Assembly: GCA_964401455.1 (NCBI GenBank)
Contig: CAYNYI010000001.1
Span: 1,245 to 65,244, forward strand
Length of the DNA stretch: 64,000 nt
Reading direction: 5' to 3'
Source of the DNA: an uncultured Fibrobacterota bacterium
GTDB lineage: Bacteria > Fibrobacterota > OXYB2-FULL-49-7 > CAYNYI01
Shown here: one piece after another, positions 2,998 through 64,000 of the stretch
Numbering within the stretch: the first letter of the stretch is position 1
Layout of the letters: the number at the start of each line of letters is the position of its first letter
Made by a program: the position numbers and the translations under genes
The notes under the pieces: generated by a model
Database searches by the model: none
What the model was told of the DNA's origin: nothing
Seen by the model: only the letters and a program-made list of their open reading frames with translations

Positions 2998-3076
2998 AAA
3001 AACTCCTCTTGATGATATTTATAAATAGTTGTTATTTAAGATACAATATGAGAAACGATATGTCAAAAATGTCTTT

Positions 3077-4069: not shown

Positions 4070-4165
4070 ATCATTTTCTCTGTTATCGTAAAGACCTGAT
4101 TCAATATATTTTCTAAATAATTGTTTATCAAGCATTTTAAAAATATTCTAATTATATTTTAAGAA

Positions 4166-5359: not shown

Positions 5360-5529
5360 AACTTATCCGTATTGAAAATAATTTGTGTATTTACTGTGAG
5401 GCCTGCTGCGCCCTTTGCCCCGAAGACGCACTCAAATCAGAAAGCCGGAGAATAAATATCTCTCAAAATTGCAGTAAATGCGGTATTTGTGCCAGTATAT
5501 GCCCGTGTGGCGCCATAAAGCAGGATTAG
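5356..5529 (+). CDS. small 2[4Fe-4S] ferredoxin
   Basis: 57-aa ORF, absent from the ORF track because it is under 60 aa. It has two CxxCxxCxxxCP clusters (CIYCEACCALCP and CSKCGICASICP). Its ATG overlaps the GGR stop (ATGA), implying translational coupling. Confidence 0.6.
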   Translation: MKLIRIENNLCIYCEACCALCPEDALKSESRRINISQNCSKCGICASICPCGAIKQD

Positions 5530-7439
5530 AAACGGTTTTTTCTTTCAACAGGAATGTTCTCGAGAGCTATGCGAAAATTGCATAAAGACACATTGTGTTT
5601 TCGGCATATAGATTTTAAATTATGTTCCCTGTTTCCGTTAACAAATTTCGATGAAAGAACAATCCTCTGAATTCCGTATTCGGAGCAAACAGCGTCAAGA
5701 TCATTTATTGAACCAAGAACTTTATAGTTATGAATTTCTTTTTTCTGTTTAAGTGGATCATCATCAATAAACCCGACAATCTTTAAATCATTACTGTCAC
5801 GCATAAACACATTGGCAGCCAGCTCTCCTCTGTCTCCGGCGCCGTAGATAAGAGTCTTTTCTCCCTCTTTTTTGTCAGCCAGCTCCCGCGAAGCATATAG
5901 ATAGAAAAAGTTATAGCTTATCCTTACACCGATTATAAGAATAATCATAAAAAGCCAATAAACAATATAAGTCTTCATTGACAAACCGTTTTCAGGAGAA
6001 AGATAACTGAAAATAAAAAACGAAAGCAGCACCCCTCCTGTTACACCTTTAAAAAACTTCCCGATCGCGCCAAGGCTGATGTGGCGCCACATATCCTTGT
6101 AGTATCCGAACGCGAGAAAAGAGATGAAACATACCCCGAAATTCAGTGTAAACCTTTTTATAAGTGCCGGGGCTGACAAAGCCTGAAGACAAGTTTCATC
6201 AATAATAAACATGGCAAAGTAATAACTTACGGAAACAAGCACAAAATCAATGAACATTTCGAAAATATGATGTCTTGTCATCCTTCTGATCAAAAAAGGA
6301 TATTTCTTTCCCGTAATATTATATTCTGCCTGATAATATTCTTTGTTTTTTTCTATTCGCTTTGCGTTGAGCTTAACAAGTATAGTCTCAATGTATCCAA
6401 GTCGTTTAATCCCGACAAAAACCAGCATCGTCATTAGAAAAAGAATTCCGGCTGCGGTCTGATCCTGTGCCGCCGTCATCATAAGGGCCAGCATTCCAAA
6501 AACAAGAGTTACAAAATACAGAATAAATACCGTCTGCTTTTGATTAAAACCAAATGAAAGCAGCCGGTGATGAAAATGGTCTTTGTCCGCCGAAAAGGGG
6601 CTTGCGCCTGTAATAATACGCCTGACCATAGCGAATAGAGTATCAAAAATAGGAACACCGAGCGCAACAAAGGGAATGATAAGAGAGACTGTGGCAGCGC
6701 TGACAACCGCCTCTTTCAAAGAAATTAGCGCGAGAATATAACCTAGGAAGAGACTCCCGGTATCTCCCATAAAAATCCTTGCCGGATTAAAATTATACTT
6801 CAGGAATCCCATCAACGAACCCGCAAGAGAAAGGCTCAAAAGAAGCACAACCGGTTTATTGGAAATTATAGCTATGGCGCTGAGCGTAATCGCCACAATC
6901 ATGGAAATACCCGAAGCAAGACCGTCCATTCCGTCAGAAAGGTTCACGGCGTTTGTAACCCCGACAATCCAAAAAACGGTAAGAGGAACCCCCATCCAAC
7001 CCAGTGCGATGGGATCTCCACCGAAAGGGTTTGTAAGCCTGTCTATTTTAAGACCCTTATAAACCAGAAAAGACGCGACAGCAAACTGAACAACGAACTT
7101 CAGTTTTGCGTCCGCGCCCCTGAGGTCATCATATATTCCAAGAAATAAAATAATGACACCGCCAATAAGTATATAAAGGTAACGCTCAGAAAAGATGTCG
7201 GGAGTAGAAGCACTGCCGCCTCTAAGGTAATCCAGAAAATAAAAGAAGCTAATTCCGGCGGCAAAACCTATAAAGATGGCGATTCCCCCCATAAGGGGAA
7301 TCGTGCCTTTATGAATCTTTCTTCCGTCAGGTTTATCAACCGCCCCAATTGATAAGGCCAGGTTTTTAACATAAGGAGTTAAAAACCAGCTTACAGCAAG
7401 CGCGGCGAACCCTGAGAGCAAATAATCTGTTAAAATCAT
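5526..7439 (-). CDS. WecA/MraY-family polyprenyl-phosphate N-acetylhexosamine-1-phosphate transferase fused to a C-terminal WbaP-N-terminal-like (TM + CoA-binding-like) module
   Basis: The N-terminal ~330 aa are polytopic with PNPT motifs (IYDDLRG; VNLSDGMDGLASG). The C-terminal ~300 aa add more TM helices and a GAGDRGELAANVF...IVGFIDDDP...VLGSINDL segment resembling the non-catalytic N-terminal domain of sugar phosphotransferases. Confidence 0.65.
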   Translation of the reverse strand: MILTDYLLSGFAALAVSWFLTPYVKNLALSIGAVDKPDGRKIHKGTIPLMGGIAIFIGFAAGISFFYFLDYLRGGSASTPDIFSERYLYILIGGVIILFLGIYDDLRGADAKLKFVVQFAVASFLVYKGLKIDRLTNPFGGDPIALGWMGVPLTVFWIVGVTNAVNLSDGMDGLASGISMIVAITLSAIAIISNKPVVLLLSLSLAGSLMGFLKYNFNPARIFMGDTGSLFLGYILALISLKEAVVSAATVSLIIPFVALGVPIFDTLFAMVRRIITGASPFSADKDHFHHRLLSFGFNQKQTVFILYFVTLVFGMLALMMTAAQDQTAAGILFLMTMLVFVGIKRLGYIETILVKLNAKRIEKNKEYYQAEYNITGKKYPFLIRRMTRHHIFEMFIDFVLVSVSYYFAMFIIDETCLQALSAPALIKRFTLNFGVCFISFLAFGYYKDMWRHISLGAIGKFFKGVTGGVLLSFFIFSYLSPENGLSMKTYIVYWLFMIILIIGVRISYNFFYLYASRELADKKEGEKTLIYGAGDRGELAANVFMRDSNDLKIVGFIDDDPLKQKKEIHNYKVLGSINDLDAVCSEYGIQRIVLSSKFVNGNREHNLKSICRKHNVSLCNFRIALENIPVERKNRF

Positions 7440-7563
7440 TAAATATATTTAAAAAGCAATCAGCTTTTTTTCTAAATTAATAACCCCTTGACCCTTTTTC
7501 CTCAAACGTAATATAAATTAAATCCTGTTTTTTGACAATAGATTTCGTATAGGAGTATGTCTT

Positions 7564-9003
7564 TCAGCTGCCGAAATCCGCCGCGGATGAGCCGGGATGA
7601 AGTCTTGTTCCTTCCGGTATGTGAATATTTTTGTTCGAATTATTTACAAGAGAAACTTCTCCCTCTACAATAGTTCCGCGGCCAAAAACAAATGGCCCTG
7701 AGACCTTGAAAGAACGACACTTCTTGAGAGAAGGAAAACCCGAAGGGAACCTTTCTGAAAAGTCTTTCATTCTCCCGAAGAATTTTTTGTCAAGCTCTAT
7801 ATAAGCCCTGCCGGCGCTTGCCTCTTCCCGGGCCGAAAGCATTCCGGTTTTTTCATTATAATCATACAAATCAGAGCAGACAAGCAAAAGATCTGATGTG
7901 CTTTTTACGGGAAGAAACCTGCTTCTGGGTACTTCTATGGCCGAAGCACCGTTAAAAAACTGGATTCCGGATCCGACTGTGGATTCAACCTGAATCACTT
8001 TTGCTGATTCGGGGTCAACGGGGTTAACTGTCTTCTTGTTTTTGATAAGAGGCAGTCGGAAAAAGCCGCCCTGTTTTTCAAGCTCTTTTTTAAGGCATTT
8101 CAGGTTCATCCAGATATTATTGATATTAAAATATCTGAAATACTCTATATCCATGAATTTGTCGAGCTCTTCTTCCGGGCATTGCGCCGTATCTCTCAGC
8201 ATAAGGTTTCCATCGGTTTTTGTCCCGAGATGTCCGCCTTTTTTGTCCATGGGTGTCCTTCTGGTAACTTCGGAAATAAAAGAAATATTCTCATCTGCCA
8301 TATAGCCGAGGATCCTGTATTCCATAACGGTACCAAGGTTGTCAATATTTGAAAGAAAAAGGAACTCGAACCCTTTTTCCAGAAGAGAGTCAAGGACCCC
8401 GGAGGAGTTGAGTGCTATGTAAAAGTCTCCATGACCGGGAGGGTTCCATTCCTTTTCCGGGTCAACCGGATATGAAACCGGCATCAGATCGCCCTCGTTA
8501 ATCTTGGGAAACTTGTTCTGAATAAACTCCAGGGTCATATCCTGTACAAAATCTGTTTTTTCACTTATATGTCTCATAGTATCATCAGATGTTGCAAAGC
8601 TGTTCATAAACAATGCCGGAATATCAGATCCTCCGGATTTGCGCATGAATTCCGTCTGCCGCAAAACGATGTCAAGAAAAGTCTTTTCTCCCCTGACCGG
8701 CAAAAGACCTTTGGGGCCCTCGAGTCCCATTGTTGTCCCGAGCCCGCCGTTCAATTTGCACATAACACATTTTTCAAGAAATTTTCGCCCACTTTCCGCA
8801 TATGAATCAAGAGAAGAAAGAGGCCGCGGATCCGGGGATCTTTCGAAGTCTTGGCCTTCATATAAAAGACCATTGTCTCCCTCAATCATTTTATCGAAAT
8901 AATGACAGAAAATATCTATTACGGGTTTTTTGAGCCCGTCATTTTTCATCTTATCTATAAAAGCTTCTTTGTTCTTATTCATAAGGGTTATATCTCCTTT
9001 CAA
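7564..9003 (-). CDS. UDP-sugar pyrophosphorylase (UTP--glucose-1-phosphate uridylyltransferase, eukaryotic UDPGP-type)
   Basis: Signature KLNGGLGTTMGLEGPKGLLPV of the UDPGP family; 479 aa. The true start may be the internal Met (MNKNKEAF...). Confidence 0.7.
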   Translation of the reverse strand: MKGDITLMNKNKEAFIDKMKNDGLKKPVIDIFCHYFDKMIEGDNGLLYEGQDFERSPDPRPLSSLDSYAESGRKFLEKCVMCKLNGGLGTTMGLEGPKGLLPVRGEKTFLDIVLRQTEFMRKSGGSDIPALFMNSFATSDDTMRHISEKTDFVQDMTLEFIQNKFPKINEGDLMPVSYPVDPEKEWNPPGHGDFYIALNSSGVLDSLLEKGFEFLFLSNIDNLGTVMEYRILGYMADENISFISEVTRRTPMDKKGGHLGTKTDGNLMLRDTAQCPEEELDKFMDIEYFRYFNINNIWMNLKCLKKELEKQGGFFRLPLIKNKKTVNPVDPESAKVIQVESTVGSGIQFFNGASAIEVPRSRFLPVKSTSDLLLVCSDLYDYNEKTGMLSAREEASAGRAYIELDKKFFGRMKDFSERFPSGFPSLKKCRSFKVSGPFVFGRGTIVEGEVSLVNNSNKNIHIPEGTRLHPGSSAADFGS

Positions 9004-21250: not shown

Positions 21251-24067
<2,817 letters not shown>

Positions 24068-24075
<8 letters not shown>

Positions 24076-24679
24076 TTTTTATTTCCGGGAGATTAAGTAC
24101 AAAATCCTCAACTAACCGGAACAATTTTTCATGTCCTTTTGAGTCCGGATGAAGCCCGTCTGATGTTTCAGACAATGGATCATAAAGACCTTGGGTCTTA
24201 AGGTAGTCAGTTGATTTTTCAATGCACGCTTGTTTTAAAATACGGTCATATTTTCTTAGTGAGTCTTCTGTATAAAACTTAGACGGGTTCCACGGAGCCG
24301 GCATAAGACGCTCCTGGTCGCATGAAGGAATGCCGAGAAAAACAGCTTTGCTGTTTATGGACGCCGCCTGATCAGCGAGAAACAGAATATTGCTTTTAAA
24401 TTTTTTTTCCGAGACCGCATGGTTTTCCAGGTTATCCACAAACTGAGAATCGTTTGTGCCTATAAAAAAAACAACTATCTGCGGATTACGAATTTCTGCT
24501 TCAGAATGGAACCTTTTTATAAGATCCTCCGTATTGTTTCCGCTTATTCCGAGGTTATAAACATCATAACCGGAGCCCTTTTTTATAAGGCTCATTTTAA
24601 GCCTTTCTGCCCAACCCCCTCCGTTCCGGTCATCTACACCCCGGGCGATGCTGTCTCCAAAAACACAGATTTTTGCCAT
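24068..24679 (-). CDS. SGNH/GDSL-family hydrolase
   Basis: N-terminal GDS block (KICVFGDSIARG) and a C-terminal DGLHP block. Length 203 aa. Confidence 0.7.
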
Positions 24680-24681
24680 AA

Positions 24682-27591
24682 TTATTTACTGGTTGCCGTA
24701 TAAACCCCGTCCCATTCTCCTTCGGGAGGCTCCGCCTTGAACATTTCGCATCTTTCAATAAAAACTCTTGAAGGCCAGGTTTTAACACCGGGTTCATTAA
24801 GAAAAGGCTCGAGTTCAAGAGACTTTGTAAATTTATTTACAGCCTGATCCCATTCTTTTTTTCTGTAGGCTTCGAGGCCTTCTGAAAAAAGCCCGATACA
24901 GTCCTGTGTTTTTTGAGAAATTTCTCCATCCCTGCCCATTATTTCAAAAATCTTGACCGGCTTGGATTTTCCGACAACCCTTATCATATCAAGCTCTCTT
25001 GTTACAACCGTTCCGCGGGACACTGCTTCAAGAGTTTCTCCTGAACACATAGAGTAAACCCCGTATTGTTTTGCTCCGGATTCGAGACGCGCCGCGAGAT
25101 TAACCGCATCTCCCATCATTGTATAGTTCATTCTGACTTCGCAGCCCATATTACCGGTTACTATTTCTCCGGTATTTATTCCTATTCTCATGTGCATCTC
25201 TTTTACAATCTGGGGCCATTTCTCACCTTCCGACGCCCATTTTTTTCTTAGCTCAAGAAGCTTTTCCTGCATTGCCACAGCTGTCAAAACCGCTCTGTCC
25301 GCATGGTCCGCCATCGGCATCGGGGCGCCGAAAAATGCGATAATTGCGTCTCCTTCATATTTATCGAGAGTTCCCTTCTGTGAAAGGAGTATATTGGTCA
25401 TTCCCGAAAGATATTCATTCAAAAGCTCTACAAGCTTTTTCGGCGAACCGAGCGCTTCGGAAAAAGTTGAGAAACCCTGTATATCTGTAAAATATGCCGT
25501 CCTGATTCCTTCCTCTCCTCCGAGCTCAGGCATTGATTTTTTCTCATACATCATATCAATCAATTCCGGGGAAATATACTGTTTAAAACTGCTTTGAAGA
25601 AATTTTTTGTCCTTCTCCTCGGAAAGGTAACGGTATATCATCGCCGCGATAAAGGCGGACATAATCCCCATTATCGGTTTGATTATTTCAAGCCACAAAG
25701 AATTATCGCTGAAAACAAAGAATGTAAAGATAACATAAGAAATCATGAACAGTACGGTGATTACAATTGATATCACCGGCCTGAGGGCCGATGTAAAAAC
25801 GGCAATGAGAACAGTAAGCAGAAGAAGAACAAGAAACGCATCTCCTGAAGTCAAAGTCCTTATATATTTCGAATTCAAAAGGTCATCGACCACTGTTGCA
25901 TGAATTTCAACACCCGGATAATCACCTCCGAGAGGAGTGGAAACAATATCAAAAAGAGCGGTGGCAGAAGAGCCGAGAACAAAAACCTTGCCCGCGTAAT
26001 ATTCCTCCGGAATCCTTCCGGCTTTTACGTCATAAAAGGAAATATACTGATAGGGCTTTTTCGGCGCTCCCTGAAAATCTATCAAAAGGCTGCCCCTTTC
26101 ATCAACAGGAATTTTAAGATCAGGACCGAAGCCAAGCTGTTCACCGTTGGAAAGTTTATCTATTTCAGATTTATCAGTACCTAGAAAATCTTCCAGAACC
26201 TCGTCTCTCAAAACCATACATTGGTTTATTCTGACTTTCCCTGCGATTTTTGAAGCGGTAAATTTCTCGCTTATTGTTATTCTGCCTTTGGAATATGCTT
26301 CACGAAGCTGTTCTTCGGTTATTTCTTTCAGCTGAAGAAGCAACGAGAGTGAAAGATCGTAAATCTCATTCTGATTATTTGCGAGCTCAACCAGAGTATA
26401 TAGCCCGCTTTCTTCTTTAATCAGTCCGGTATTATCTCCTATCTGAACCGGCTGTCCTTTTGGAAGCCCTTCCAGGTCGCTTACGGTAATGTTTTTAAGA
26501 TCAAGAATTGAAAGATATGAAACAGATCCGTTCAAATAATCAAAATAAACCCCTTTTTCACCTTTAACGAGTACAATCTTTTCTGTAATTGTAAGACTCT
26601 GTCCGTCTTTAAGAGACCGCACTTCATCTTTCTTTTTTAATAGAGCTTCTGCCATTTGCCATGAAACATCGGGATAACTGGTTTTTAATAAGCCGCTGCT
26701 GTCTTTAATGACTCTGAATTTAGGCCCCAGGTTGAGATGTTTGCCAAGATCTATTTCAATATCGTTCAAGGTAACACCCAAAACCCTCATTGCCGCCTGA
26801 AGAGCCAGGGCGGGATAAGTATATCCGTTAAAACCCATAAGGAGATTTATTCTTCTGATAACACCATCACGCTCCGGTACAACATTAATAAAACCGACCC
26901 TATCGGCCGCAGAGGTCAATTCCGGGAAAGAGCCGTCAAGCACCTGCTTGTTAACAATTTTACCGGAAAGATCTATTAAAAGAGCAGACGATGAAGGGTT
27001 CATTTTTTTCCGCCACTTCTCCGTCGTTTTTCTTTCATAGTCCGATTTAAACTGATAGGCCGTTGTGTCTTCAAGCTTCAACGCATGTATGACATTACCT
27101 GATCTTTCAGTATAGTCAACGAAAACAGAATCATAATTAAAGCGCGATTTAACATAATTAAAGAGCCGGTCACTGTCAGGAATATCAAAGCCGCCGTTTT
27201 GTATCAACTCAAGAAATTTATCGCTCTCTTCTTTTCCGAAGTTTGCGGAAGAATAAAAAATATCGAACAGTACCGCGGCCGCGTTACCCTTTGAGAGATT
27301 ATAAGCAACCTCGCCTGCATATGAGCGTGGCCATTTCCAGTAAGGGCCGAGTTTAGAAAAGCTTCTTTCATCAATGTCAACGATAACTATGTTCTCATTG
27401 ACATATTTTTTTTCATTCGAATATGTGTCAAGCAGGCCGGAAGGATATTTGAACTGATAACGCAAATCATAGGTTCTCTGTTCAAGACCATACCACAGGT
27501 CTCCAAGAATATAAGTATAAGTAAAATTAGCAATGAACGCCGCGGCTATGCCTATCAGCACACCAAACCCGGATTTTTTTAACAGCTTCAC
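24682..27591 (-). CDS. CHASE2-sensor class III adenylate/guanylate cyclase with C-terminal TPR-like tail
   Basis: N-terminal TM segment, ~350-aa periplasmic CHASE2-like region, three TM helices, a cyclase homology domain (FTDIQGFSTFSE...YEGDAIIAFFGAP...RIGINTGEIVTGNMG) and a C-terminal helical repeat. Confidence 0.7.
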   Translation of the reverse strand: MKLLKKSGFGVLIGIAAAFIANFTYTYILGDLWYGLEQRTYDLRYQFKYPSGLLDTYSNEKKYVNENIVIVDIDERSFSKLGPYWKWPRSYAGEVAYNLSKGNAAAVLFDIFYSSANFGKEESDKFLELIQNGGFDIPDSDRLFNYVKSRFNYDSVFVDYTERSGNVIHALKLEDTTAYQFKSDYERKTTEKWRKKMNPSSSALLIDLSGKIVNKQVLDGSFPELTSAADRVGFINVVPERDGVIRRINLLMGFNGYTYPALALQAAMRVLGVTLNDIEIDLGKHLNLGPKFRVIKDSSGLLKTSYPDVSWQMAEALLKKKDEVRSLKDGQSLTITEKIVLVKGEKGVYFDYLNGSVSYLSILDLKNITVSDLEGLPKGQPVQIGDNTGLIKEESGLYTLVELANNQNEIYDLSLSLLLQLKEITEEQLREAYSKGRITISEKFTASKIAGKVRINQCMVLRDEVLEDFLGTDKSEIDKLSNGEQLGFGPDLKIPVDERGSLLIDFQGAPKKPYQYISFYDVKAGRIPEEYYAGKVFVLGSSATALFDIVSTPLGGDYPGVEIHATVVDDLLNSKYIRTLTSGDAFLVLLLLTVLIAVFTSALRPVISIVITVLFMISYVIFTFFVFSDNSLWLEIIKPIMGIMSAFIAAMIYRYLSEEKDKKFLQSSFKQYISPELIDMMYEKKSMPELGGEEGIRTAYFTDIQGFSTFSEALGSPKKLVELLNEYLSGMTNILLSQKGTLDKYEGDAIIAFFGAPMPMADHADRAVLTAVAMQEKLLELRKKWASEGEKWPQIVKEMHMRIGINTGEIVTGNMGCEVRMNYTMMGDAVNLAARLESGAKQYGVYSMCSGETLEAVSRGTVVTRELDMIRVVGKSKPVKIFEIMGRDGEISQKTQDCIGLFSEGLEAYRKKEWDQAVNKFTKSLELEPFLNEPGVKTWPSRVFIERCEMFKAEPPEGEWDGVYTATSK

Positions 27592-52109: not shown

Positions 52110-52280
52110 TTTCGCTCCTTTATATCTGATTGCTCTTAATTAAAATCAATGTTTTTACTGGGAGAAGATATAAATTATTGATGTTAACAGTCAAGAGAAA
52201 ATCTTTTAATACAGTAATTTACGAAAATCTATTCTTACCTGTTTATATTTAAAATTTCATTTTTTATGGCTGATAAAAGT

Positions 52281-52310
52281 AATATATTTATCCTCAAATG
52301 GATAAAAACG
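52281..52310 (+). promoter_or_regulatory. DnaA-box palindrome overlapping the dnaA start codon
   Basis: TTTATCCtcaaATGGATAAA: TTATCCTCA (1 mismatch to TTATCCACA) and its inverted partner TGGATAAA flank ATG 52298. Confidence 0.45.
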
Positions 52311-53623
52311 AATGCTGGAAACATTTCCTGGAAAAAGCTTCTGAAGAATTTGACAGCAGTCTTTTCAAAACATGGATAAAACCGCTTAAACCTCTTGTCA
52401 TTTCCGAAGACCGGGTTATTATCTTTGTAAAAGACGCCATTTTTATGGAATTCATAGAAAGTAATCATTCCGATAAAATAAAAAATCTTCTTAAAAATAT
52501 ATGCGGATTCCCAATTAATCTTATTTTTACCGATAAAGAAATTGTCTATGAAAAGAAATTTGACAAAAAAGAAAAAGTCAATGTTAATAAAGGTGAAATT
52601 AATCCGGATTTTACCTTTGACGATTTTGTTGTAGGCGGAAACAACCGGTTTGCGTATTCCGCCTCACACGCGGTAGCGGAATCACCCGGTAATAATAAGT
52701 TTAATCCTCTTTACCTTTACGGGAAAAGCGGTCTGGGTAAAACACATCTTCTTTTTGCCATTGGAAACTATGCCGTTAAGAATCACAGTAACCTTAATAT
52801 AAAATATGTTTCCGCAGATAAAATGCAAAGAGATCTCATAGAAAACATACAAAAAAACAAAACCGCGGAATTCAGGGAGTCTTTTAATAATTTGGACATC
52901 CTTCTTGTTGATGATATCCATTTTTTGTCCGGCACATCATCTACACAGGAAGAATTTTTTCACATTTTCAATACCATTTATCAGCGTTCAAAACAGATTA
53001 TTATAACAAGCGACAAACAGCCAAGAGAACTTTCAGGAATAGAAGACAGGTTGGTTTCAAGATTTCAGTGGGGTCTTTCTGTTGATATTCAACCTCCTGA
53101 CCTTGAAACGAAAATTGCTATATTAAATAAAAAAGCAGAGAATCATAGTTTTGAACTTTCTCCGGATATCATAAGATATATAGCTTCAAATACCGATAAT
53201 ATAAGGGAGCTTGAGGGATGTATAATAAAACTTTTAGCTTATTCATCAATAAACAACAGGCTTGAAATAACACTTGATCTTGCAAAGGATGTTCTAAAAT
53301 TCGGAACCGGAATCGCAAGAAAAAAGATATATATTGAACAAATAACGGAAAGTGTTATTAACTATTATAAAGGTTATAAAATAGATATTAATGATGTTCT
53401 TTTCGGAGGAAGAAAAAAAGAAGTAGCCCTGGTCAGACAAGTTTCAATGTATCTATCAAGAACAATGACATCCAATTCCTTAAAAAATATAGGAAGCTAC
53501 TTTAGAAAAGATCACAGTACGGTTGTACATTCTATTAAAAACATAAATAAACTTCTAAAAGAAGATGAACAGCTTGGAAATGATATAGAAAACATTAAAA
53601 AAAATATAACTGAAAACCTTTAA
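52298..53623 (+). CDS. dnaA: chromosomal replication initiator protein DnaA
   Basis: AAA+ Walker A LYGKSGLGKTHLL; a C-terminal DnaA-box-binding domain; 441 aa. Confidence 0.95.
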   Translation: MDKNECWKHFLEKASEEFDSSLFKTWIKPLKPLVISEDRVIIFVKDAIFMEFIESNHSDKIKNLLKNICGFPINLIFTDKEIVYEKKFDKKEKVNVNKGEINPDFTFDDFVVGGNNRFAYSASHAVAESPGNNKFNPLYLYGKSGLGKTHLLFAIGNYAVKNHSNLNIKYVSADKMQRDLIENIQKNKTAEFRESFNNLDILLVDDIHFLSGTSSTQEEFFHIFNTIYQRSKQIIITSDKQPRELSGIEDRLVSRFQWGLSVDIQPPDLETKIAILNKKAENHSFELSPDIIRYIASNTDNIRELEGCIIKLLAYSSINNRLEITLDLAKDVLKFGTGIARKKIYIEQITESVINYYKGYKIDINDVLFGGRKKEVALVRQVSMYLSRTMTSNSLKNIGSYFRKDHSTVVHSIKNINKLLKEDEQLGNDIENIKKNITENL

Positions 53624-53923
53624 TAAGCTATTTAAATTTAATAAGTTCTTGAAGAACAACCCGATTGACTGTTGATAACATGTTAAATTTAACAACCGAT
53701 GTTTTTTGAACATTTTTTTATTTAATGTAATCTGCTGATTTTTAATAAATTAAACACCATATAAACAATATCAACACTACTATAATATTAATAAATTTAA
53801 ATTAATAAAAAATTTAATATTAGTAGGCTGTTAGTATCACTCAAATAAATATTTTCTTGTATTATATTTGGTTTTAATTTATATTTTTTTGAAATTAATC
53901 ATTCTTTTTGAGGGGAAATAAAT
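53624..53923. promoter_or_regulatory. candidate oriC (AT-rich unwinding region with DnaA-box-like motifs) between dnaA and dnaN
   Basis: A 300-bp non-coding spacer of very low GC. TGTTGATAA (53670-53678) and the inverted ATATCAACA (53768-53776) are about 100 bp apart, followed by an uninterrupted A/T tract at 53781-53822. Confidence 0.5.
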
Positions 53924-55051
53924 TTGAAGTTCAATATAAAAAAATCAGATCTTCTTTCTGTGCTTCAGAATGTTGTCAGTGCCATATCAACCAAAACGAC
54001 GATTCCATATTTATCATATATCCATATTTCCGGAAATAATAATAAATTAAAAATCTCGTCTACTGACCTTGATATGTTTATTACCGGATCCGTTCCCGCT
54101 GATGTGGTTCAGGATACGGATATACTGGTAAGTGGTAAAAAGCTTCTTGATATAATCAAAAACCTTCCGGAAGTTGTGGTTGCTTTTAAAGTCGAGGAAA
54201 ATTTTCTGGTAATAGAGGCTGAAAAATATAAAGGAAAGCTTCCTGTAGCGGATGTTGCTGATTTTCCATCTATTCCTTCCATTTCAGATGTTTACAGTTT
54301 TAAAATTAAATCTGAAAGTATTCAAAAATTAATAAGTAATGTTGTTTACGCGGCCTCTACTGACGAAAGTATGCCTGTTTTAAGGGGATTGAATTTTGAG
54401 GTAAATAAAAACAGAATAAGAATGGTAGCTACAGACAGACATAAAATGGCCCTTTATGAAATTCAGTCTGATACAGGTATTGAAAAAGACTCAAGAATTA
54501 TTATTTCAAGGAAGACCGCTTCTCATATACAAAAAACGATCGATATTTTTTCTCCGGATGAAATAGAAATTTCAGTCAGTGAAAAATTCTGTATTTTCAG
54601 CATGGGGGAGACCACTGTTTTTTCAAAAATAATTGAGGGAAAATATCCTAATTATGAACAGGTTATACCAAAAGATAATAAAAAAACCGCTATTGTAAAT
54701 AAAAGTATTCTTCTTAATAAAATTAATCTTGTAAGTCTTTCGTCGGACACAAATACAAAACAGATACTTTTTAAATTTTCAGCCGGCTCTTTAAGTCTTA
54801 GCGCACACAATAAAGAAACTTCTTTTTATTCTTCGGAAGAAATTCCTGTGTCTTATAACGAAGAGGAAATATCAATAGCCTTTAATTCTCAGTTTCTTTC
54901 AGAAACACTGAAACTTGTTAATACCGAAGAAGTGAGTTTTAATATGAAATCTTCTTTAAACGCGTGCATTATAGTTCCTACTGAGCATAAAGAAGGTGAA
55001 AATTCTTTATTCCTTCTTATGCCTCTAAGAACAGTTGAAGAGAATGCTTAA
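53924..55051 (+). CDS. dnaN: DNA polymerase III beta sliding clamp
   Basis: 375 aa with a TTG start preceded by a GAGGGG RBS and three clamp-domain repeats. Confidence 0.9.
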   Translation: MKFNIKKSDLLSVLQNVVSAISTKTTIPYLSYIHISGNNNKLKISSTDLDMFITGSVPADVVQDTDILVSGKKLLDIIKNLPEVVVAFKVEENFLVIEAEKYKGKLPVADVADFPSIPSISDVYSFKIKSESIQKLISNVVYAASTDESMPVLRGLNFEVNKNRIRMVATDRHKMALYEIQSDTGIEKDSRIIISRKTASHIQKTIDIFSPDEIEISVSEKFCIFSMGETTVFSKIIEGKYPNYEQVIPKDNKKTAIVNKSILLNKINLVSLSSDTNTKQILFKFSAGSLSLSAHNKETSFYSSEEIPVSYNEEEISIAFNSQFLSETLKLVNTEEVSFNMKSSLNACIIVPTEHKEGENSLFLLMPLRTVEENA

Positions 55052-56309
55052 CTCAAAAATTTTTTTTACTGTTGTTTTTTTCAAAATTTTAACTTTTTCT
55101 TCAGCTATAAATGAATACCGTTTTATAAAAGATTCCTGGAATCCTGAGTCTTCAAACCACGGTTTTGCTTCTGTATCGGTTTCCAGGGGAATTTTTTCCT
55201 ATTTAGAAAATCCCGCGCTTACCGGCAAAACACCAAATTTAATTACCGGTCTTTCCTCTTCATATTCCGGAAATCATTTTTCTTTTAATCCGGCTTTTAC
55301 TTCCAGAATATCTAATAATACGGTTATAGGATTGGGTGTATTAAGAAACAATTCTTCTATTCCTGAAAATCGGTTTACTTTTAATTTCAGCTACTCTTTT
55401 CTTAATTATTCTTTCGGATTGAATTCTCATTTTCTTAATTATTCTGACGAGTCTCTTGAGTTTCAAAACAAAACAAATATGGATTTTGATTTCGGATATA
55501 TAATAGAACCTTTCAGCAAGCTGCGTCACGCATTTACAGTATATAATCTTCTTTCATCCTCTTTTTATGAAAGTTATGATACTGTTTTAAAAACAATGAC
55601 TTCACTTGAAACATCTCTTTCTCTATTAATCAACGAAAGCGGAAAAAGCAATATTTCGGTTGCCGGAGGTTTCGGTAATTCTGATGAAGTAATGAATTCA
55701 TTGAATGGCGGAGTTTCTCTGAGTCTTGTATTTATTAAGGAAAAATTAGGGCTTCATTCTTCTTTTAATTATCAAAAAGAAGGAAAAAATAGTTTTTATA
55801 CAAAAACCGGTTTCGGACCCTCTTTTATTTTGAATACCGATGCGGGGGATTACCGGTTTTCTTATTCCTCACAAATAATACGGAATTCTTTTTCATCAGA
55901 GAAAAATATAAATCATTATGTTTCTATTGATTATTCGCATGGAATAGAAAAGGATTTTTATAAGCCTTTCGGTAATATTACTACAGATAAAAATTCTTTT
56001 ACTCCTGATGGAGATAATGTTGATGATTTTTTAACCGTGTTTATTGAAGCCTCCGATAATGAAGGAGGCACCGGACTGAAAAAATGGGCTTTAGTAATAT
56101 GTAAACGACCGGACACGGAAAAATCATCTTCGTGTGATATTATTAAATCTTTCAGCGGGAAAGGGATCCCGCCGGGTGCGTTGAAATGGGATGGTAGGAA
56201 TTCTTCTTCAACATTGTGTGCAAAAGGGGATTATTTTTTAAGACTCAGACTGGTTGATAAAAAAAATAATCACTTCGAAGGACCCTGGAAAAAAATATCT
56301 ATTGAATAA
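55035..56309 (+). CDS. secreted/outer-membrane hypothetical protein with C-terminal FTPDGDxxDD-type (gliding-motility / FlgD-Ig-like) domain
   Basis: Signal peptide; S/N/F-rich beta-strand-like body; C-terminal FTPDGDNVDDFL...WDGRN...GDYFLRLRL. It overlaps the dnaN 3' end by 17 nt. Confidence 0.55.
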   Translation: MKRMLNSKIFFTVVFFKILTFSSAINEYRFIKDSWNPESSNHGFASVSVSRGIFSYLENPALTGKTPNLITGLSSSYSGNHFSFNPAFTSRISNNTVIGLGVLRNNSSIPENRFTFNFSYSFLNYSFGLNSHFLNYSDESLEFQNKTNMDFDFGYIIEPFSKLRHAFTVYNLLSSSFYESYDTVLKTMTSLETSLSLLINESGKSNISVAGGFGNSDEVMNSLNGGVSLSLVFIKEKLGLHSSFNYQKEGKNSFYTKTGFGPSFILNTDAGDYRFSYSSQIIRNSFSSEKNINHYVSIDYSHGIEKDFYKPFGNITTDKNSFTPDGDNVDDFLTVFIEASDNEGGTGLKKWALVICKRPDTEKSSSCDIIKSFSGKGIPPGALKWDGRNSSSTLCAKGDYFLRLRLVDKKNNHFEGPWKKISIE

Positions 56310-56329
56310 CAGTTAGTTGATATTTTCAT

Positions 56330-57406
56330 TTGTTTCTAAAAAAAATTAAACTTTCAAATTTCAGAAACTTCTCTGAACTTGATATTGATTTTCAGAAAGG
56401 TATAAATCTTATTACCGGGCTTAACGGCAGTGGTAAAACAAACCTTCTGGAATCTGTGTATTACTGTGGTTATTTTCGACCTTTGAAAAGCGGCACAGCT
56501 AAAGATATGATAAAGTTTGATAAAGAATGTTTTAATATCACAATAGAATATGATTCAAAAGACTCAACGAATACTGTAAATGCAAATTATTCGATAGATG
56601 GTTTACGAAAAGTATTCTTTAATGGAAAAAAAATAGATTCCGTTTTAGAATATATAGGAAAATTTATAACCGTTGGATTCGGACCCGACGATTTGAATAT
56701 AATATCAAATTCCCCCGCTTATAGAAGAAAATTTATAGACTCTGTTTTATCTCAAACTGACAGTAAATATCTTTATTGTCTAAAAGATTATAAAAAAAAT
56801 CTTAAACAGAAGAATTATGAGCTTAAAAATGAAATACCGGACAGAACTCTTCTTAAAACATATACGGAAATTATGTCTGAAAAAGCTTCATATATAATCG
56901 ATAAGAGAAAAGGATTTATCGAAAACATTAAAAAAGATCTCGAAAACCACATTTTTGATATAAGCCTTAACAGAGAAAACATTGAAATTTTTTATATCGG
57001 AAATAAAACGGATTATATTTTCTCAGGCTATCATTCAGATAAACTTGAAAAAGAAATTAAATTCAGAAAAACTCTTAATGGTCCTCATCTCCATGACATA
57101 GATTTTCATTTCCATCATGGGAGCTACCGTGATTTTGGAAGCCAGGGCCAGTGCCGTTCTTTGGCTGTGGCTCTTAAACTGGCATCTATTGAGTATATAA
57201 GTATGACAGCCGAAGTAAAACCAATACTTCTTTTTGATGATATTTTCTCTGAACTTGACCCTGAAAGGAGCGAAAAAATTTTAAAAATTATTAACAAATT
57301 TGATCAGGTATTTATAGCAGCTCCAAAAATGGAACCTTTTTTTAATAATATTAATTATTTTTATGTTATAGAAAAAGACAATGTTTTAAAAAAAATCCCG
57401 GTTTAA
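56330..57406 (+). CDS. recF: DNA replication and repair protein RecF
   Basis: TTG start; IKLSNFRNF...ITGLNGSGKTNLLES Walker A; signature/Walker B (LLFDDIFSELD); 358 aa. Confidence 0.9.
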   Translation: MFLKKIKLSNFRNFSELDIDFQKGINLITGLNGSGKTNLLESVYYCGYFRPLKSGTAKDMIKFDKECFNITIEYDSKDSTNTVNANYSIDGLRKVFFNGKKIDSVLEYIGKFITVGFGPDDLNIISNSPAYRRKFIDSVLSQTDSKYLYCLKDYKKNLKQKNYELKNEIPDRTLLKTYTEIMSEKASYIIDKRKGFIENIKKDLENHIFDISLNRENIEIFYIGNKTDYIFSGYHSDKLEKEIKFRKTLNGPHLHDIDFHFHHGSYRDFGSQGQCRSLAVALKLASIEYISMTAEVKPILLFDDIFSELDPERSEKILKIINKFDQVFIAAPKMEPFFNNINYFYVIEKDNVLKKIPV

Positions 57407-57407
57407 A

Positions 57408-57713
57408 ATGAAAAGAAATCAGAAAAAAAGAGACCCTGAACAAATAGGTAAAATGATTGAATTACTTATAAACAATAATTCTAAAATAAGACAACACTTT
57501 AATTCTTATGATATTTCAGACTGTTGGAAAGAGGTTACAGGTGAGAAAATAGCGTCAATTTCCAAATTTGTAAAATTTGAAAAATCAACGCTTTATATTA
57601 AAGTAGAGAACAGTGTCTGGAAAGCCGAACTTTTTTATATGAAGCAGGAGCTGATAACCAGGATTAATAAAAAAAACGGTAAAAATATTCTGAAAGATAT
57701 TATATTCATATAA
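57408..57713 (+). CDS. dciA: DUF721-family protein, probable DciA-type helicase-loading factor
   Basis: 101 aa between recF and gyrB, the conserved DUF721 position. Pattern ...W.EVTGEKIASISKFVKFEKSTLYIKVENSVWKAEL... matches that family. Confidence 0.55.
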   Translation: MKRNQKKRDPEQIGKMIELLINNNSKIRQHFNSYDISDCWKEVTGEKIASISKFVKFEKSTLYIKVENSVWKAELFYMKQELITRINKKNGKNILKDIIFI

Positions 57714-57763
57714 GAAAATTTTCATCATGAAATATTTCCTATTTCCGAAAGAAGAGGTAAAAC

Positions 57764-59680
57764 GTGTCCGGTGAACAATATCAGGCGAATTCCATAAAAG
57801 TACTAAAAGGTCTGGAGGCTGTACGTAAACGTCCGGCAATGTATATTGGAAGTACAAATACCCGGGGGCTTCATCACCTTGTTTTTGAGGTTATAGACAA
57901 TTCAATAGATGAAGCGATGGCCGGGCATTGTGACAAAATAGACGTTATTATTCTTAAAGATGAATCTATTTCTGTCAGGGACAACGGCAGAGGAATACCT
58001 ACGGATTATCATGAAGGTGAAAAGAAAAGCGCACTTGAAGTGGCGCTTACGACACTTCATGCCGGAGGCAAGTTTGATGCTGACAGTTATAAAGTATCCG
58101 GCGGTCTTCATGGTGTAGGGGTTTCATGTGTAAATGCTTTGAGTATCTGGACCAAGGTAAAAGTTTTCAGGGACGGCAAAACACATGAACAAAGCTATAA
58201 AAGAGGTTTTCCTGACGGGCCTCTCAAGGTTACAGGAGAAACAAAAGAAACAGGTACGCTTGTAACTTTTAAGCCGGATCATGAAATTTTTGAAGAAACT
58301 ATTTTTAATTTTGACACTCTTTCCGCCAGACTCAGAGAGCTTGCTTTTCTGAATAAGGGAATAAGGATAACGATTATTGATGAGCGTAAAGAAGATCACA
58401 GACACTCTTTTTATTATCCGGGTGGAATAGCTTCTTTTGTTGAATATCTTAACGAGGATATTGTCGTTCTTCATAAACCACCGATTTATTTCCGGAACGA
58501 AGGGGAAAATTTTGATCTTGAAATATCAATACAATACAACGATTCTTATAAGGACAAAGTTTTTTCGTTTGTTAACAATATTAATACAGTTGACGGAGGA
58601 ACGCATCTTGCCGGGTTTAGAAGCTCCCTTACCCGTACTATAAACAATTATGCCAAAATAAACAACATGCTAAAAGGCAAGAACCCGGTTACAATTACGG
58701 GTGTTGATATATAAGAAGGCCTTACTTCTGTTATAAGCATAAAAATATCGAATCCCCAGTTTGAAGGACAGACAAAACATAAACTTGGAAATCCTGAGGT
58801 GAAAGGAATTGTCGAAAGCAGCCTCAACGAAAAACTGGGAATTTTTCTTGAAGAAAACCCGCCAGTCGCTAAAAAAATAATTGATAAATGTATAGGCGCC
58901 GCGACAGCGAGAGAGGCCGCAAGAAAAGCAAAACAGCTTTCCAGAAGAAAAAACTTTCTTGAGACGGGCAGCCTTCCCGGTAAACTTGCCGACTGCTCAA
59001 GCAAAGACAGAACAATTTGTGAGATATTCATTGTTGAGGGGGACTCTGCGGGCGGTTCTGCCAAGATGGGTAGAGACCGGTCTTTTCAGGCTATACTTCC
59101 TCTTCGCGGAAAAATTCTTAATGTTGAAAAAAAGAGACTTGATAAAATTCTTTCGAGCGAAGAAATAAAAGTTTTAATATCTGCTATCGGAACGGGGATC
59201 GGCGATGATGAATTTGATATGGAAAAGAGAAGATATGATAAAATTATCATAATGACCGACGCAGATGTTGACGGGGCGCATATACGGACATTATTAATGA
59301 CTTTTTTCTTCAGATATATGGAAAAGCTCATTACAGACGGACACTTATATATTGCTCAACCACCTTTATATAAAATCAAACAAGGTAAAAGAGAGGTATA
59401 TGCGTTTAGCGACGAAGAAAAAAACAGGCTTGTAAAAGAATTAGATCAGTCTAAAAATCAAAAAGTTTCTATACAGAGATATAAAGGTCTTGGTGAAATG
59501 AACCCGGAACAGCTCGCAACAACAACCATGGAACCAGACAGAAGAATTCTTCTTCAGGTTACTCTTGAGGATGCAGTCGAAGCCGATAAAATTTTTACTA
59601 AACTTATGGGTGACGAAGTTGAGCCGAGAAGAAAATTTATAGAGGACCATGCCCATACTGTTAAGGAGCTTGATGTCTGA
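57764..59680 (+). pseudogene. gyrB: DNA gyrase subunit B, interrupted by an in-frame TAA as sequenced
   Basis: Both halves are in one frame, so there is no frameshift. The reading ...[37 protein letters not shown]... places a TAA at 58712-58714, where GyrB homologues have Arg (TGEDVREGL). Track ORF 1 ends at the stop and ORF 2 restarts at GTG 58799. ATPase motifs and TOPRIM motifs (EGDSAGGS; DADVDGAHI) are intact. Confidence 0.85.
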
Positions 59681-59700
59681 TTTAATATAACCGGGAAATA

Positions 59701-59730
59701 AAAAAAAGGACCCTTAGGGTCCTTTTTTTA
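59701..59730. terminator. bidirectional rho-independent terminator between convergent gyrB and the T9SS-cargo gene
   Basis: AAAAAAA GGACCC tta GGGTCC TTTTTTT: a perfect 6-bp GC stem flanked by an A-run and a T-run. Confidence 0.75.
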
Positions 59731-62052
59731 TTTCTGCATTAAAATTTTTTTTAAAACAGATTTTTCTTTGTTCTGAAATTTCGCTATGTAAATTCCGGAA
59801 GACATTCCTTCTGCAGTCCATGTAAAAGAGTATGGTATCTTGTTAGGAACAAAAGTTTTTAAAATTCTGCCTTTTGTGTTCATAATATTTATTCTTGAAT
59901 CAGGAGCATTAATATCCTTACCGGAAACTATTATTTTTACCGATGGGTTAAAAGGATTCGGAAATGCACTTATTGTAACTTCTTCTTCAGGATTTACAGA
60001 ATTATCTTTGCTTATTGAAAGCACAGAACTGTTCGGTACAGATAATTCAATATATTTGTTTTTTACTGTACCTGTAATATCTAAGCTTCTTTCGGAAGCC
60101 GAAGCAGCCTGGAATTCATAGGTTTTTTCCATTCCGTTTTCTTCATAACAGTATCGAACATTTACAGGGTCGTTAAAGGAATTCTGCTCCTGGTAGGCAG
60201 CGTGTATCATAACTTCGTTTACCGCATGAGAGTTTCCATGAAATTTTATAAAAAACTCATTGCCGTAACCGTTTAAAATACCGGTTGTATCTCTGTACTG
60301 CAGCCAATGTCTTGTCCAGGAAGGGCTTTTAACAAAATCATATGCCAGAGAGTAAGAGTTGCCGTCGTTTGAGACTGAAATATTATAGTCCTTTTCCGAT
60401 GTCCATGGAAGAACGGAATAAGAAGCCGCCGTATTGAACCACTTGAACGAAGAGTTTTCCGGAGCCTCAATTTTAAATGTTATGTCACCGTAAACCTTTT
60501 CCATCAAATCGTATGGTTTATATGTTCCGGAAAATGATTCTATCATCGGGTTAGTGTGCGCTGAATCATTGAGTATAACCGGATATCTGACAGGAACAGT
60601 ATTCATTCCTTTGACATCTCCGTTTAGGTACCCGATTGTATTCGTTCCGGTTTTCAGTCTTGGCAGAGACATCGGGGCAACGGACAACCATGTTTCTGTG
60701 TTGAAAGAATTAAGCCCTGCCTGCCCCGCTGTTCCGACAAACGAAAATTTAACTAAATATTCATACATTCCGTAACACTCGGATGTAAGGTCCTCGGAAT
60801 TAGAAAGGTCCGCACCCGACGCCAGCTCAGTCCATGAATGACCGAAATTTTTACTGAACTGCACAGTGGTATTACCTGATGTTTGATAGCTGAGCACGAC
60901 TCCGTCATGATAGCCGTTTAGATCGGCAAGATCTGCGCCCGGTTTTCCAATAAACAGATATGGAGAATATGTCCGAAAAATTATAAACCCTGAGCCGTCA
61001 TTTTCAAGAACAGGGCCTTCTGTCCCAAAAACGATATTGCTGTCCCTGAATATTCCGTCAGAATAATCGCTCTCGTAGCTTAGATCCGGTTGATACTTAA
61101 GAACACCTATTCCGGTAGTGTTAACGCTTCCTCCGTTTTCCGGGGCAACCCATGGTTTGGGGCCGTAAGGTTCTTTGTTGTGGATTTCTTCGAGCTCCTG
61201 AGCGCGCGCCGCCCAATAAGAGTTTTCATTTTCTGTATCCAGCCGCTCTCTTATCATAAAAACCCTTTGGCTGTCCGATTGCCAATACCTGCGCAGAGAC
61301 TCGCCTCTCCTCAGAACAAAGTCCATTGTGTGACAGGTATACCATTGTTTATTATATCTTTCATAATAAGGAGGATTATTGTTCCTTTTCTGATAAGATG
61401 TGTCCGCAAAATTTTTAAACATTTCGAGAGTTATCATTCCCACGTCCTTGAGGGAATCAGGATAAGGAAAATACGGAAAAATACCATGTGGATTGTTGTC
61501 CATAATTGACGGGTTTTCTCCAATCTCAAGCCAGGAAGGAATATGACCGTCCGCCTCTTTTACATAGCCTCTTTGTTCCGGATCAAAATAATGCCAGTCT
61601 CCGTCATAGTGGACCTCAATCATTGTATGCCAGCTGCCGTATCCTCCGCAAACCAGAGAATCGAACATTCCTGTTGCTTCGAGCATTCCGGCGTATGCGG
61701 GGTTTACATGAAAACAAAGGCCGTATCCATATGAGTTGAAAAGTTCTATCGGGTCTCTAATCAGTAAATGAGAAACTCTTTCGTTGCTGCTATAGTCGCT
61801 CTTATTGTCAACCCAGCGGTTTTCTTCACGGGCATCAGCAAAATGATAAAAACCGGTAACGGAATCAGCAAAGTAATTATGAACAGCTTCCGCAAGCTCC
61901 TGACCGGTTTTACCGCTGAAGCCGGGGTGTTCCAGAAAATTTTGGTAATCTCCGCTTAAATCGGCAGTATGTTGCGTAAGAATTTTCGGCGAGTAGGCTT
62001 TCGAAAAAACCTGAAACGAAAAAATCAATATCAAAATTATAAATGCTCTCAT
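59728..62052 (-). CDS. secreted transglutaminase-like protein with C-terminal T9SS (Por_Secre_tail-type) sorting domain
   Basis: Signal peptide (MRAFIILILIFSFQVFSKA). Cys/His/Asp core (GLCFHVNPAYAG...GYGSWHTMIEVHYDGDWHYFDPE). C-terminal ~80 aa ISAFPNPFNPSVKI...SGIYIAKF resembles the T9SS type A CTD. Confidence 0.65.
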   Translation of the reverse strand: MRAFIILILIFSFQVFSKAYSPKILTQHTADLSGDYQNFLEHPGFSGKTGQELAEAVHNYFADSVTGFYHFADAREENRWVDNKSDYSSNERVSHLLIRDPIELFNSYGYGLCFHVNPAYAGMLEATGMFDSLVCGGYGSWHTMIEVHYDGDWHYFDPEQRGYVKEADGHIPSWLEIGENPSIMDNNPHGIFPYFPYPDSLKDVGMITLEMFKNFADTSYQKRNNNPPYYERYNKQWYTCHTMDFVLRRGESLRRYWQSDSQRVFMIRERLDTENENSYWAARAQELEEIHNKEPYGPKPWVAPENGGSVNTTGIGVLKYQPDLSYESDYSDGIFRDSNIVFGTEGPVLENDGSGFIIFRTYSPYLFIGKPGADLADLNGYHDGVVLSYQTSGNTTVQFSKNFGHSWTELASGADLSNSEDLTSECYGMYEYLVKFSFVGTAGQAGLNSFNTETWLSVAPMSLPRLKTGTNTIGYLNGDVKGMNTVPVRYPVILNDSAHTNPMIESFSGTYKPYDLMEKVYGDITFKIEAPENSSFKWFNTAASYSVLPWTSEKDYNISVSNDGNSYSLAYDFVKSPSWTRHWLQYRDTTGILNGYGNEFFIKFHGNSHAVNEVMIHAAYQEQNSFNDPVNVRYCYEENGMEKTYEFQAASASERSLDITGTVKNKYIELSVPNSSVLSISKDNSVNPEEEVTISAFPNPFNPSVKIIVSGKDINAPDSRINIMNTKGRILKTFVPNKIPYSFTWTAEGMSSGIYIAKFQNKEKSVLKKILMQK

Positions 62053-62067
62053 TTTTATTTCCTTTCT

Positions 62068-62151
62068 AAATCGATCTATTTTTAGTAAAAACGCTTCGAT
62101 TACTTAAAATATATATAGATTCCCCAGAAAATCAAAAAAATAGATCGATTT
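62068..62151. repeat. 16-bp perfect inverted repeat (AAATCGATCTATTTTT ... AAAAATAGATCGATTT) with 52-bp loop
   Basis: Arms at 62068-62083 and 62136-62151 in the divergent intergenic region. Confidence 0.6.
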
Positions 62152-62325
62152 TATTATTTAATTGTGATTTATATCACAACATTATGGAAAAATTTTTTTT
62201 ATATTATAAGCTTGAAAACTGTTGCAATTGGGGGTAAAAATAAAGTTCTTTATATTATAGACTAGAAACCGTTAAAACAATCTAATCATAGATGATAGTT
62301 ATTTTAATTTTATAAGGAGTTCATT

Positions 62326-63114
62326 ATGATATACCTGAGGAGCCGTTTGTTTTTTTTAGTTATTTTTTTGTGTATAATTTCTTCTGCCGCGGAAAAACCG
62401 GAACCCGGTGTTGACTGGGTCAACAGAACCGTTACGGCAATTGGGGTAAGCGGCGATAAAGGCAACCGGGCCTCTAAAATTAGAGTGGCAAAATTGACCG
62501 CTATAAGAGACGCTCTTGAACTTGTTAAAGGAATGCCCGTAAACAGCACAACAACCGTAAAAAATCTTATGCTGGAAAGTGATGTTATAAAAACAAAAAT
62601 AAATGGATACATACAAAACTTTGAATTTGAGAATAAACCTCATTATATGAGTGACGGTACAATTGAAATCGCTGTTACTATTCCTCTTGACGGAATTATG
62701 GACCAGCTTGTTCCTTCAGAAATAGGCGACAATCCTTCAGTAAAATCCATGGAAAGCACATCCGCTCCCGGGGCTGTTTTTACCGGTATGATAATAGACG
62801 CTTCCGGACTAGAGGTAAAACCGGCCATAGCGCCCAAAATTATAGACGAAGACGGAAAGGAAATATACGGTTCTGCATATGTTTCAAGAGAATTCGCGGT
62901 AAAATATGGAATGGCAGGATATGCCAGGACCCTTGATCAGGCCAGAATAAACAAAGATCGTATCGGAGAAAAGCCGGCGGTCTTCAAGGCAACAGAAGCC
63001 CTCGGAGCCAATAAATGCGACATACGGATTTCAAATACCCAGGCTGACCAGATCAGAAGCGCAGCGGAAAACCTGAAGTTTCTTGAACAATGCAGAGTTA
63101 TAATCATACTGTAA
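62326..63114 (+). CDS. lipoprotein, tentatively LPP20/FlgP-like
   Basis: RBS AAGGAG; signal peptide; after the signal, ...VTAIGVSGDKGNRASKIRVAKLTAIRDALELVKGMPVNSTTTV resembles the LPP20/FlgP motif. Confidence 0.4.
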   Translation: MIYLRSRLFFLVIFLCIISSAAEKPEPGVDWVNRTVTAIGVSGDKGNRASKIRVAKLTAIRDALELVKGMPVNSTTTVKNLMLESDVIKTKINGYIQNFEFENKPHYMSDGTIEIAVTIPLDGIMDQLVPSEIGDNPSVKSMESTSAPGAVFTGMIIDASGLEVKPAIAPKIIDEDGKEIYGSAYVSREFAVKYGMAGYARTLDQARINKDRIGEKPAVFKATEALGANKCDIRISNTQADQIRSAAENLKFLEQCRVIIIL

Positions 63115-63133
63115 ATTTATAAAGGAGAAAATA

Positions 63134-64000
63134 TATGAAAAACCTCACATCGAAAAGCCGCGTCATAAATTTACTGTTGACACTGGCTGTAATTCTTTTT
63201 GTTGCCGGATGTGGTCCTAAAGCCCGCAGGTCCGAAGGACACATGGATACACCCCAGGTACACTACAAACAGGGAATGAAATTTTATGAGGATGGGAAAC
63301 TCGACAAAGCTCTTTCTGAATTTAATCTCGCGAAGACTCTTGATCATAAATACGGACCGGCTTATATAGGGCTTTCCCTTGTGAGCGCCCGCAAAGGCAA
63401 ATTTAAAGAGGCTTATGAATATGTGGATAAAGCGGAAAAATATGATGATGACAACCCAAAAGTTTATATTGCCGAAGGCATAATAATCACCCTTGAAAAA
63501 CAGGGAGGAAAAGATGAGGACTGGTATGAGGACGCCATAGATGCTTATGATGAGGCCTTGAAAAAAGATCCTCAGTCAGGAGAAGCTCATTACAGAAAAG
63601 GGTGGACATATAAGAAGGCCTTTATGTTTTCTAAGGCCGGAGAGGAATTCCAAAAGACGCTTGAGATTAATAAGGACTATACATCCGAAGCCGATAAAGA
63701 ATGGGCTACGGTTCAGAAAATACAAAGAGCAGCCCCCGGAACCATTGTTGGTAAAAAAATAGCCCTTATCGGCACAATCAGCCGTTCCGATATTGCGGCC
63801 CTTTTTATAAATGAACTTGATGTGGTAAAGCTCATAGAAAAAAAGCGCCCAAAAAATTATGACACCGGGTTCCGTGCTCCGGAAACCGACAAAACAAAAA
63901 TGAAAACAGAGACTTCAGTTAAAAAAGAAGCCGTAACGGATGTCTCTGGGCACTGGGCTGAAAATTTTATTAAAGAAGTTGTCCGTCTTCAAATACGAGG
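63134..64000 (+). CDS. TPR-repeat lipoprotein with C-terminal SLH domain (3' partial at window end)
   Basis: RBS AAGGAG; lipobox LFVAGCGP; TPR-like repeats; SLH start motif DVSGHWAENFIKEVV at the window edge. Confidence 0.6.

Follow-up and report, generated by a model that had tools for sequence, protein, structure and literature searches.

The window analysed here, a stretch of 64,000 nt, covers a bacterial origin region of 39% GC in which the genes follow the order rnpA, yidC, dnaA, dnaN, a 424-aa ORF (unknown), recF, dciA and gyrB. The 424-aa ORF (55035–56309, forward strand) lies between dnaN and recF and shares 17 nt with the end of dnaN. It matches no Pfam family and gives a weak OmpA-like NCBIfam match, and constitutes an unusual insertion in the dnaA–dnaN–recF–gyrB cluster. 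The features of the gyrB locus, with the state in the closely related sister MAG (GCA_046542585.1) where the two differ, are as follows.

57764–59680, forward strand: gyrB, 638 sense codons, complete if the internal TAA is read through
58654–58731, forward strand: 78-bp patch, the sole hole around gyrB in the Logan contigs of run SRR11308339; it also contains the start of the sister-MAG contig
58703–58705, forward strand: GTT (Val) codon at an Asp/Glu position, equivalent to E. coli D313; GAT (Asp) in the sister MAG
58712–58714, forward strand: in-frame TAA, codon 317 of gyrB, equivalent to E. coli GyrB R316; AAA (Lys) in the sister MAG
58769–58777, forward strand: QTK-loop codons CAG ACA AAA, equivalent to E. 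coli Q335/T336/K337, from the alignment
58799–58801, forward strand: GTG, the first in-frame ATG/GTG/TTG after the TAA and the start of the 293-aa ORF P0121

Assignment of the product to GyrB is supported along the whole gene. The GHKL ATPase domain, the transducer with its QTK loop, the Toprim domain and the C-terminal tail are collinear with TIGR01059 (DNA topoisomerase (ATP-hydrolyzing) subunit B), the alignment with E. coli GyrB is gapless, and the closest homologues, in Fibrobacterota/Chitinispirillia, are 67–68% identical over 100% of the length. The reading frame is interrupted at codon 317, where the codons run GGT GTT GAT ATA TAA GAA GGC CTT, giving TGVDI*EGLT. The N-terminal part (316 aa) matches TIGR01059 positions 1–309 and the C-terminal part (321 aa) positions 314–639, with scores of 449 and 507 bits that together exceed the 882-bit cutoff; zero residues are missing and the frame is unchanged across the TAA. 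This confirms the description in the earlier note of two gyrB ORFs in the same frame, parted only by the TAA. Gene callers render them as ORFs of 316 aa (P0242) and 293 aa (P0121). The remainder of the gene shows no decay, and gyrB is single-copy within the window. It is also the sole case in the window of two long same-frame segments of the same family with one stop between them. The other sets of same-frame neighbours, MnmE/MnmG/RsmG, RecN-like/CHASE2 cyclase, WYL/epimerase and EPSP-synthase-like/NAD kinase, all consist of complete, unrelated genes.

The TAA falls inside the transducer domain, not at a domain boundary, and the Gln of the QTK loop lies 19 codons downstream of it. A product restarted at GTG 58799 would be without 28 residues, the QTK loop among them. 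K337 of GyrB is needed for ATP hydrolysis. Since the loop is lost by either truncation or restart, only readthrough of the stop would keep this allele of an essential, single-copy gene from being null.

Comparison with homologues places both anomalous codons at conserved positions. Among the 261 homologues collected, as proteins and genome loci, the position of E. coli D313 is occupied by Glu or Asp in 258 and by Ser or Thr in three; Val was seen in none. The R316 position has Arg in 249, Lys in 10 (the sister MAG itself among them) and Leu in two, and a stop in none. The earlier note had described the latter as an Arg-conserved position, which holds for most GyrB proteins; Lys occurs in 9 of the 61 genomes sampled, so that it is better regarded as an Arg/Lys position. 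Those with Lys include several Chlorobi-type, Ignavibacteria and Leptospirales MAGs. The Val codon, whose differing base (58704) lies 8 nt upstream of the TAA, had been overlooked in that note.

Independent assemblies of the same organism were retrieved through neighbouring proteins, in two look-ups. The sister MAG, annotated as Fibrobacterota bacterium, is approximately 99.98% identical to the window over 25.9 kb. The first base of its contig JBKHBB010000017.1 corresponds to window position 58690, 22 nt before the TAA, and over 5,311 bp this contig differs from the window at three positions: 58704 (T in the window, A in the MAG), 58712 (T and A) and 62207 (T and C). A second contig shows five differences in 20,612 bp and no gaps. 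At the gyrB site the MAG reads GAT GAT ATA AAA GAA, encoding TGDDIKEGL; AAA is one of the two sense codons that the earlier note had named as refuting its case. Two of 42 bp differ at the site, against 6 of 25,881 bp elsewhere (Poisson P for at least two differences, 4.7e-5).

The residues of the sister MAG are conserved ones at both positions and the Val and stop of the window are never seen, so the window allele is the derived one. Furthermore, two random errors at the end of a MAG contig would not restore both conserved residues. GAT/AAA is thus the functional state, and GTT/TAA derives from it by two damaging A-to-T changes 8 nt apart. Where E. coli GyrB has R316, the functional allele of the lineage carries Lys instead of Arg.

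The Logan contigs of SRR11308339 provide a further assembly, with 100% identity to the window in 914–8330, 23549–25048, 52239–58653 and 58732–64000 (20.6 kb). These contigs carry T at 62207, indicating that the strain of the window is the strain in this run. They leave the patch 58654–58731 uncovered. Logan, which works at k = 31, drops any 31-mer that occurs a single time, and a contig must exceed 150 bp to be reported (PMC12424806). Under these rules the patch would consist either of singleton k-mers or of a branch structure with pieces of at most 138 bp that go unreported; the k-mers of interest are the 31-mers spanning GGTGTTGATATATAAGAAGGCCTTACTTCTG and GGTGATGATATAAAAGAAGGCCTTACTTCTG. 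The three assemblies thus treat the site in three ways: the window crosses it with two odd bases, the MAG contig, beginning 22 nt ahead of the stop, has the conserved bases, and Logan has a 78-bp hole. Logan contigs average about 7.2 kb and those of the MAG about 28 kb; at these lengths, ends from both assemblies would fall within 60 nt of any one chosen site with a probability of approximately 7e-5. As to the cause of the breaks, the site has no repeat elsewhere in the window and no notable inverted repeat or hairpin, and its GC content is 34–36%. A DNA pattern in which the variable bases were set to N had no match in JGI metagenomes, and protein searches found nothing else above 69% identity, so the collections searched contain no third reading of the site. 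In a scan of genome contigs, relatives reached at most 65% identity among the matches listed. No literature was found for the accession numbers.

The window allele also shares an exact 15-mer, ATATAAGAAGGCCTT, which includes the T of the TAA, with 63608–63622, inside a TPR/SLH gene. When 63600–63622 is set against 58700–58723 in the same register, the T at 58704 matches too, and the allele of the sister MAG mismatches at both bases. About 1% of random substitutions would create such a 15-mer (post hoc p of about 0.003). To our knowledge no assembler step works at k = 15. Cross-talk with 63608–63622 was considered; no mechanism was identified, and the match is left as a coincidence.

A lesion in a second essential gene in the window behaves differently. 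The gene is as follows.

22100–24075, reverse strand: ligA (NAD-dependent DNA ligase), split into 24075–23458 (205 aa) and 23461–22100 (453 aa)

The split results from a -1 frame change or missing base at GGAAAAGGG (23499–23505, minus-strand text). The second frame encodes a conserved LigA motif ahead of the point where the second ORF starts, and this places the change or missing base within GGAAGAAGGAAAAGGGTT (23512–23495, reverse strand). When the product is shifted at GGA AAA/GG (A_AAA_G), it aligns with E. coli LigA across the junction with no gap. Unlike the gyrB stop, the ligA split is identical in the sister MAG (contig JBKHBB010000001.1). Distant relatives have an intact ligA, and the junction has no downstream RNA structure (z = +0.64). 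The lesion may be a systematic error, or it may be a real frameshift, with ligA either a pseudogene or translated through a -1 slip at A_AAA_G. A Logan contig ends 46–49 nt before it. Taken together, Logan contigs L087 (end 23549) and L081 (end 58653) stop 46–51 nt short of the ligA A-run and of the first gyrB variant base, respectively; as Logan contigs average about 7 kb, chance alone is unlikely to have put ends so near to both, which hints at heterogeneity or poor read support at both places.

The earlier note had offered three options for the stop and chosen none: a base-call or assembly error, a strain-level nonsense allele that is rescued, or programmed recoding. The first is favoured by the AAA of the sister MAG and the breaks at the site. 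Independent assemblies of this population do not reproduce the allele: the sister MAG has A at both bases, and the patch is absent from the Logan assembly. The allele is derived, and assembly breaks cluster where it lies. Read-level support at the site was presumably poor. Since the sister MAG has A/A, differences are locally in excess, Val and stop are unseen in homologues, the breaks coincide and the allele would be null in an essential gene, the TAA is probably a locally unsupported consensus, i.e. a read or local assembly error (we put the probability of this at about 0.7, from comparison of assembled sequences). The internal stop is most likely not a biological feature.

Under such an error the working gyrB of the organism would read GAT GAT ATA AAA (TGDDIKEGL), as in the sister MAG, and the two A-to-T substitutions would sit in a 78-bp patch that short-read assemblies of the population cannot cross cleanly. 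At a spot with thin or ambiguous support, the assembler of the window would have joined the sequence by means of reads or k-mers that contain errors. Several observations count against this. At all other places tested, the window agrees exactly with an independent assembly, so the assembly is not generally sloppy. As a k-mer has to be seen at least twice before most assemblers accept it, one or more of the sequenced molecules may carry the T/T haplotype. In addition, the sister MAG shares the lesion in ligA, a second essential gene.

Uncurated MAGs are documented to contain local assembly errors that damage protein-coding genes (Chen et al., 2020; PMC7111523). The present case resembles them in that a short stretch of consensus corrupts a coding gene, at a place where the assembly is uncertain, and is unreproduced by other assemblies. 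It differs in consisting of two substitutions, whereas the typical error is a scrambled or duplicated stretch. The defining criterion of such errors is the lack of perfect read support, for which the Logan gap, given that singleton k-mers are dropped, is only indirect evidence. There is also a likeness to the internal-stop pseudogenes of draft genomes, one nonsense codon lying in an otherwise intact, conserved ORF; the gyrB fragments, which the protein collection lists on a 78,883-bp NCBI contig, are without NCBI protein accessions there, which is consistent with pseudogene flagging. In contrast to such pseudogenes, however, this gene is essential, with one copy in the window, and the sister genome (99.98%) has a sense codon.

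An unlikely alternative, though one to be taken seriously, is that a single event (GAT to GTT, AAA to TAA) produced a real, dead gyrB allele in some cells or in the whole strain, a segregating or relic null with no rescue, and that the assembler took this path through a bubble. Two independent assemblies breaking inside the same 78 bp would be expected of a bubble between co-existing haplotypes, and linking pieces of at most 138 bp would not show in Logan. The exact ends of the Logan contigs fit this poorly, however: they fall at 58653 and 58732, and a two-haplotype bubble at k = 31 would need 58703 and 58713. Moreover, in an essential single-copy gene a null allele would not be expected to rise to consensus frequency, and the remainder of gyrB is undecayed. 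The reproducible ligA lesion bears on the other side, in that real lesions in essential genes may exist in the lineage; because lesions there are evidently not all random, some weight is kept on a real gyrB allele. A stronger version of this view, in which the patch is real heterogeneity and null or recoded alleles of both gyrB (UAA at codon 317) and ligA (-1 break at A_AAA_G) persist, expressed through low-level readthrough and frameshifting, would explain why Logan contigs end about 50 nt short of both lesions, but is considered very improbable. Targeting by a diversity-generating retroelement, suggested by both changes being at adenines, was rejected; there is no template repeat or second copy in the window, and no reverse transcriptase among its annotated ORFs.

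Decoding of the UAA, whether through programmed readthrough or through a suppressor tRNA whose anticodon is UUA, would yield full-length GyrB. The intact, in-frame halves would suit such a mechanism, and an essential gene would require the full-length product if the allele were real. As in Sec/Pyl recoding and leaky phage stops, an in-frame stop is followed by a part that is clearly coding. The likeness ends there, however, since this stop is UAA rather than UGA or UAG and no conservation, downstream structure or dedicated tRNA is in view. The stop is missing from the sister genome and from the 261 homologues. The region 58690–58810 (121 nt, from 22 nt upstream to approximately 100 nt downstream) has a minimum free energy of -21 kcal/mol, compared with -18.7 ± 3.2 for shuffles (z = -0.71), and so folds no better than these. 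With the stop unconserved even at 99.98% identity, stimulatory structure lacking and TAA an ordinary terminator here, the programmed recoding offered in the earlier note is not supported. ARAGORN found no tRNA or tmRNA in the 64-kb window, and no Rfam match there reached the gathering score. Of the three stops UAA, which RF1 and RF2 both recognize, is the least leaky. The adjoining Asp-to-Val change, at an invariant acidic position, is also damaging and has no role in such a model, which is accordingly regarded as highly unlikely. Reassignment of TAA to a sense codon throughout the genome would have nothing in its favour beyond one codon. Besides the gyrB TAA, ORFs in the window terminate with TGA in 29 cases, TAA in 22 and TAG in three; the 22 of 54 that end at TAA do so at the ends of their family models, and include dnaA, dnaN and recF. 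No other conserved gene in the window has an internal TAA. The statements in the earlier note that TAA is a genuine terminator in these three genes and that a genome-wide reassignment is unlikely are thus borne out. Reassignment is refuted within the window, and its probability is negligible. It is scarcely more credible that gyrase B is naturally split into residues 1–316 and a restarted downstream product. Gene callers do yield ORFs of 316 and 293 aa, but restart at GTG 58799 lies beyond the QTK loop and loses 28 conserved residues, the break is within the transducer domain, and the sister MAG is unsplit at this codon; the anatomy of the gene effectively refutes a split.

If the stop is an artefact, as the preferred reading of a local assembly error has it, its meaning is one of data hygiene only: the deposited assembly contains a false gyrB pseudogene. 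The gene serves as a marker in phylogeny and in estimates of completeness, and two spurious fragments (316 and 293 aa) from gene callers are already in protein collections. Were the allele real and expressed, a bacterium would be suppressing UAA in one of its essential genes, a notable case; the evidence speaks against this. The reproducible frame break in ligA deserves follow-up more than the gyrB stop does.
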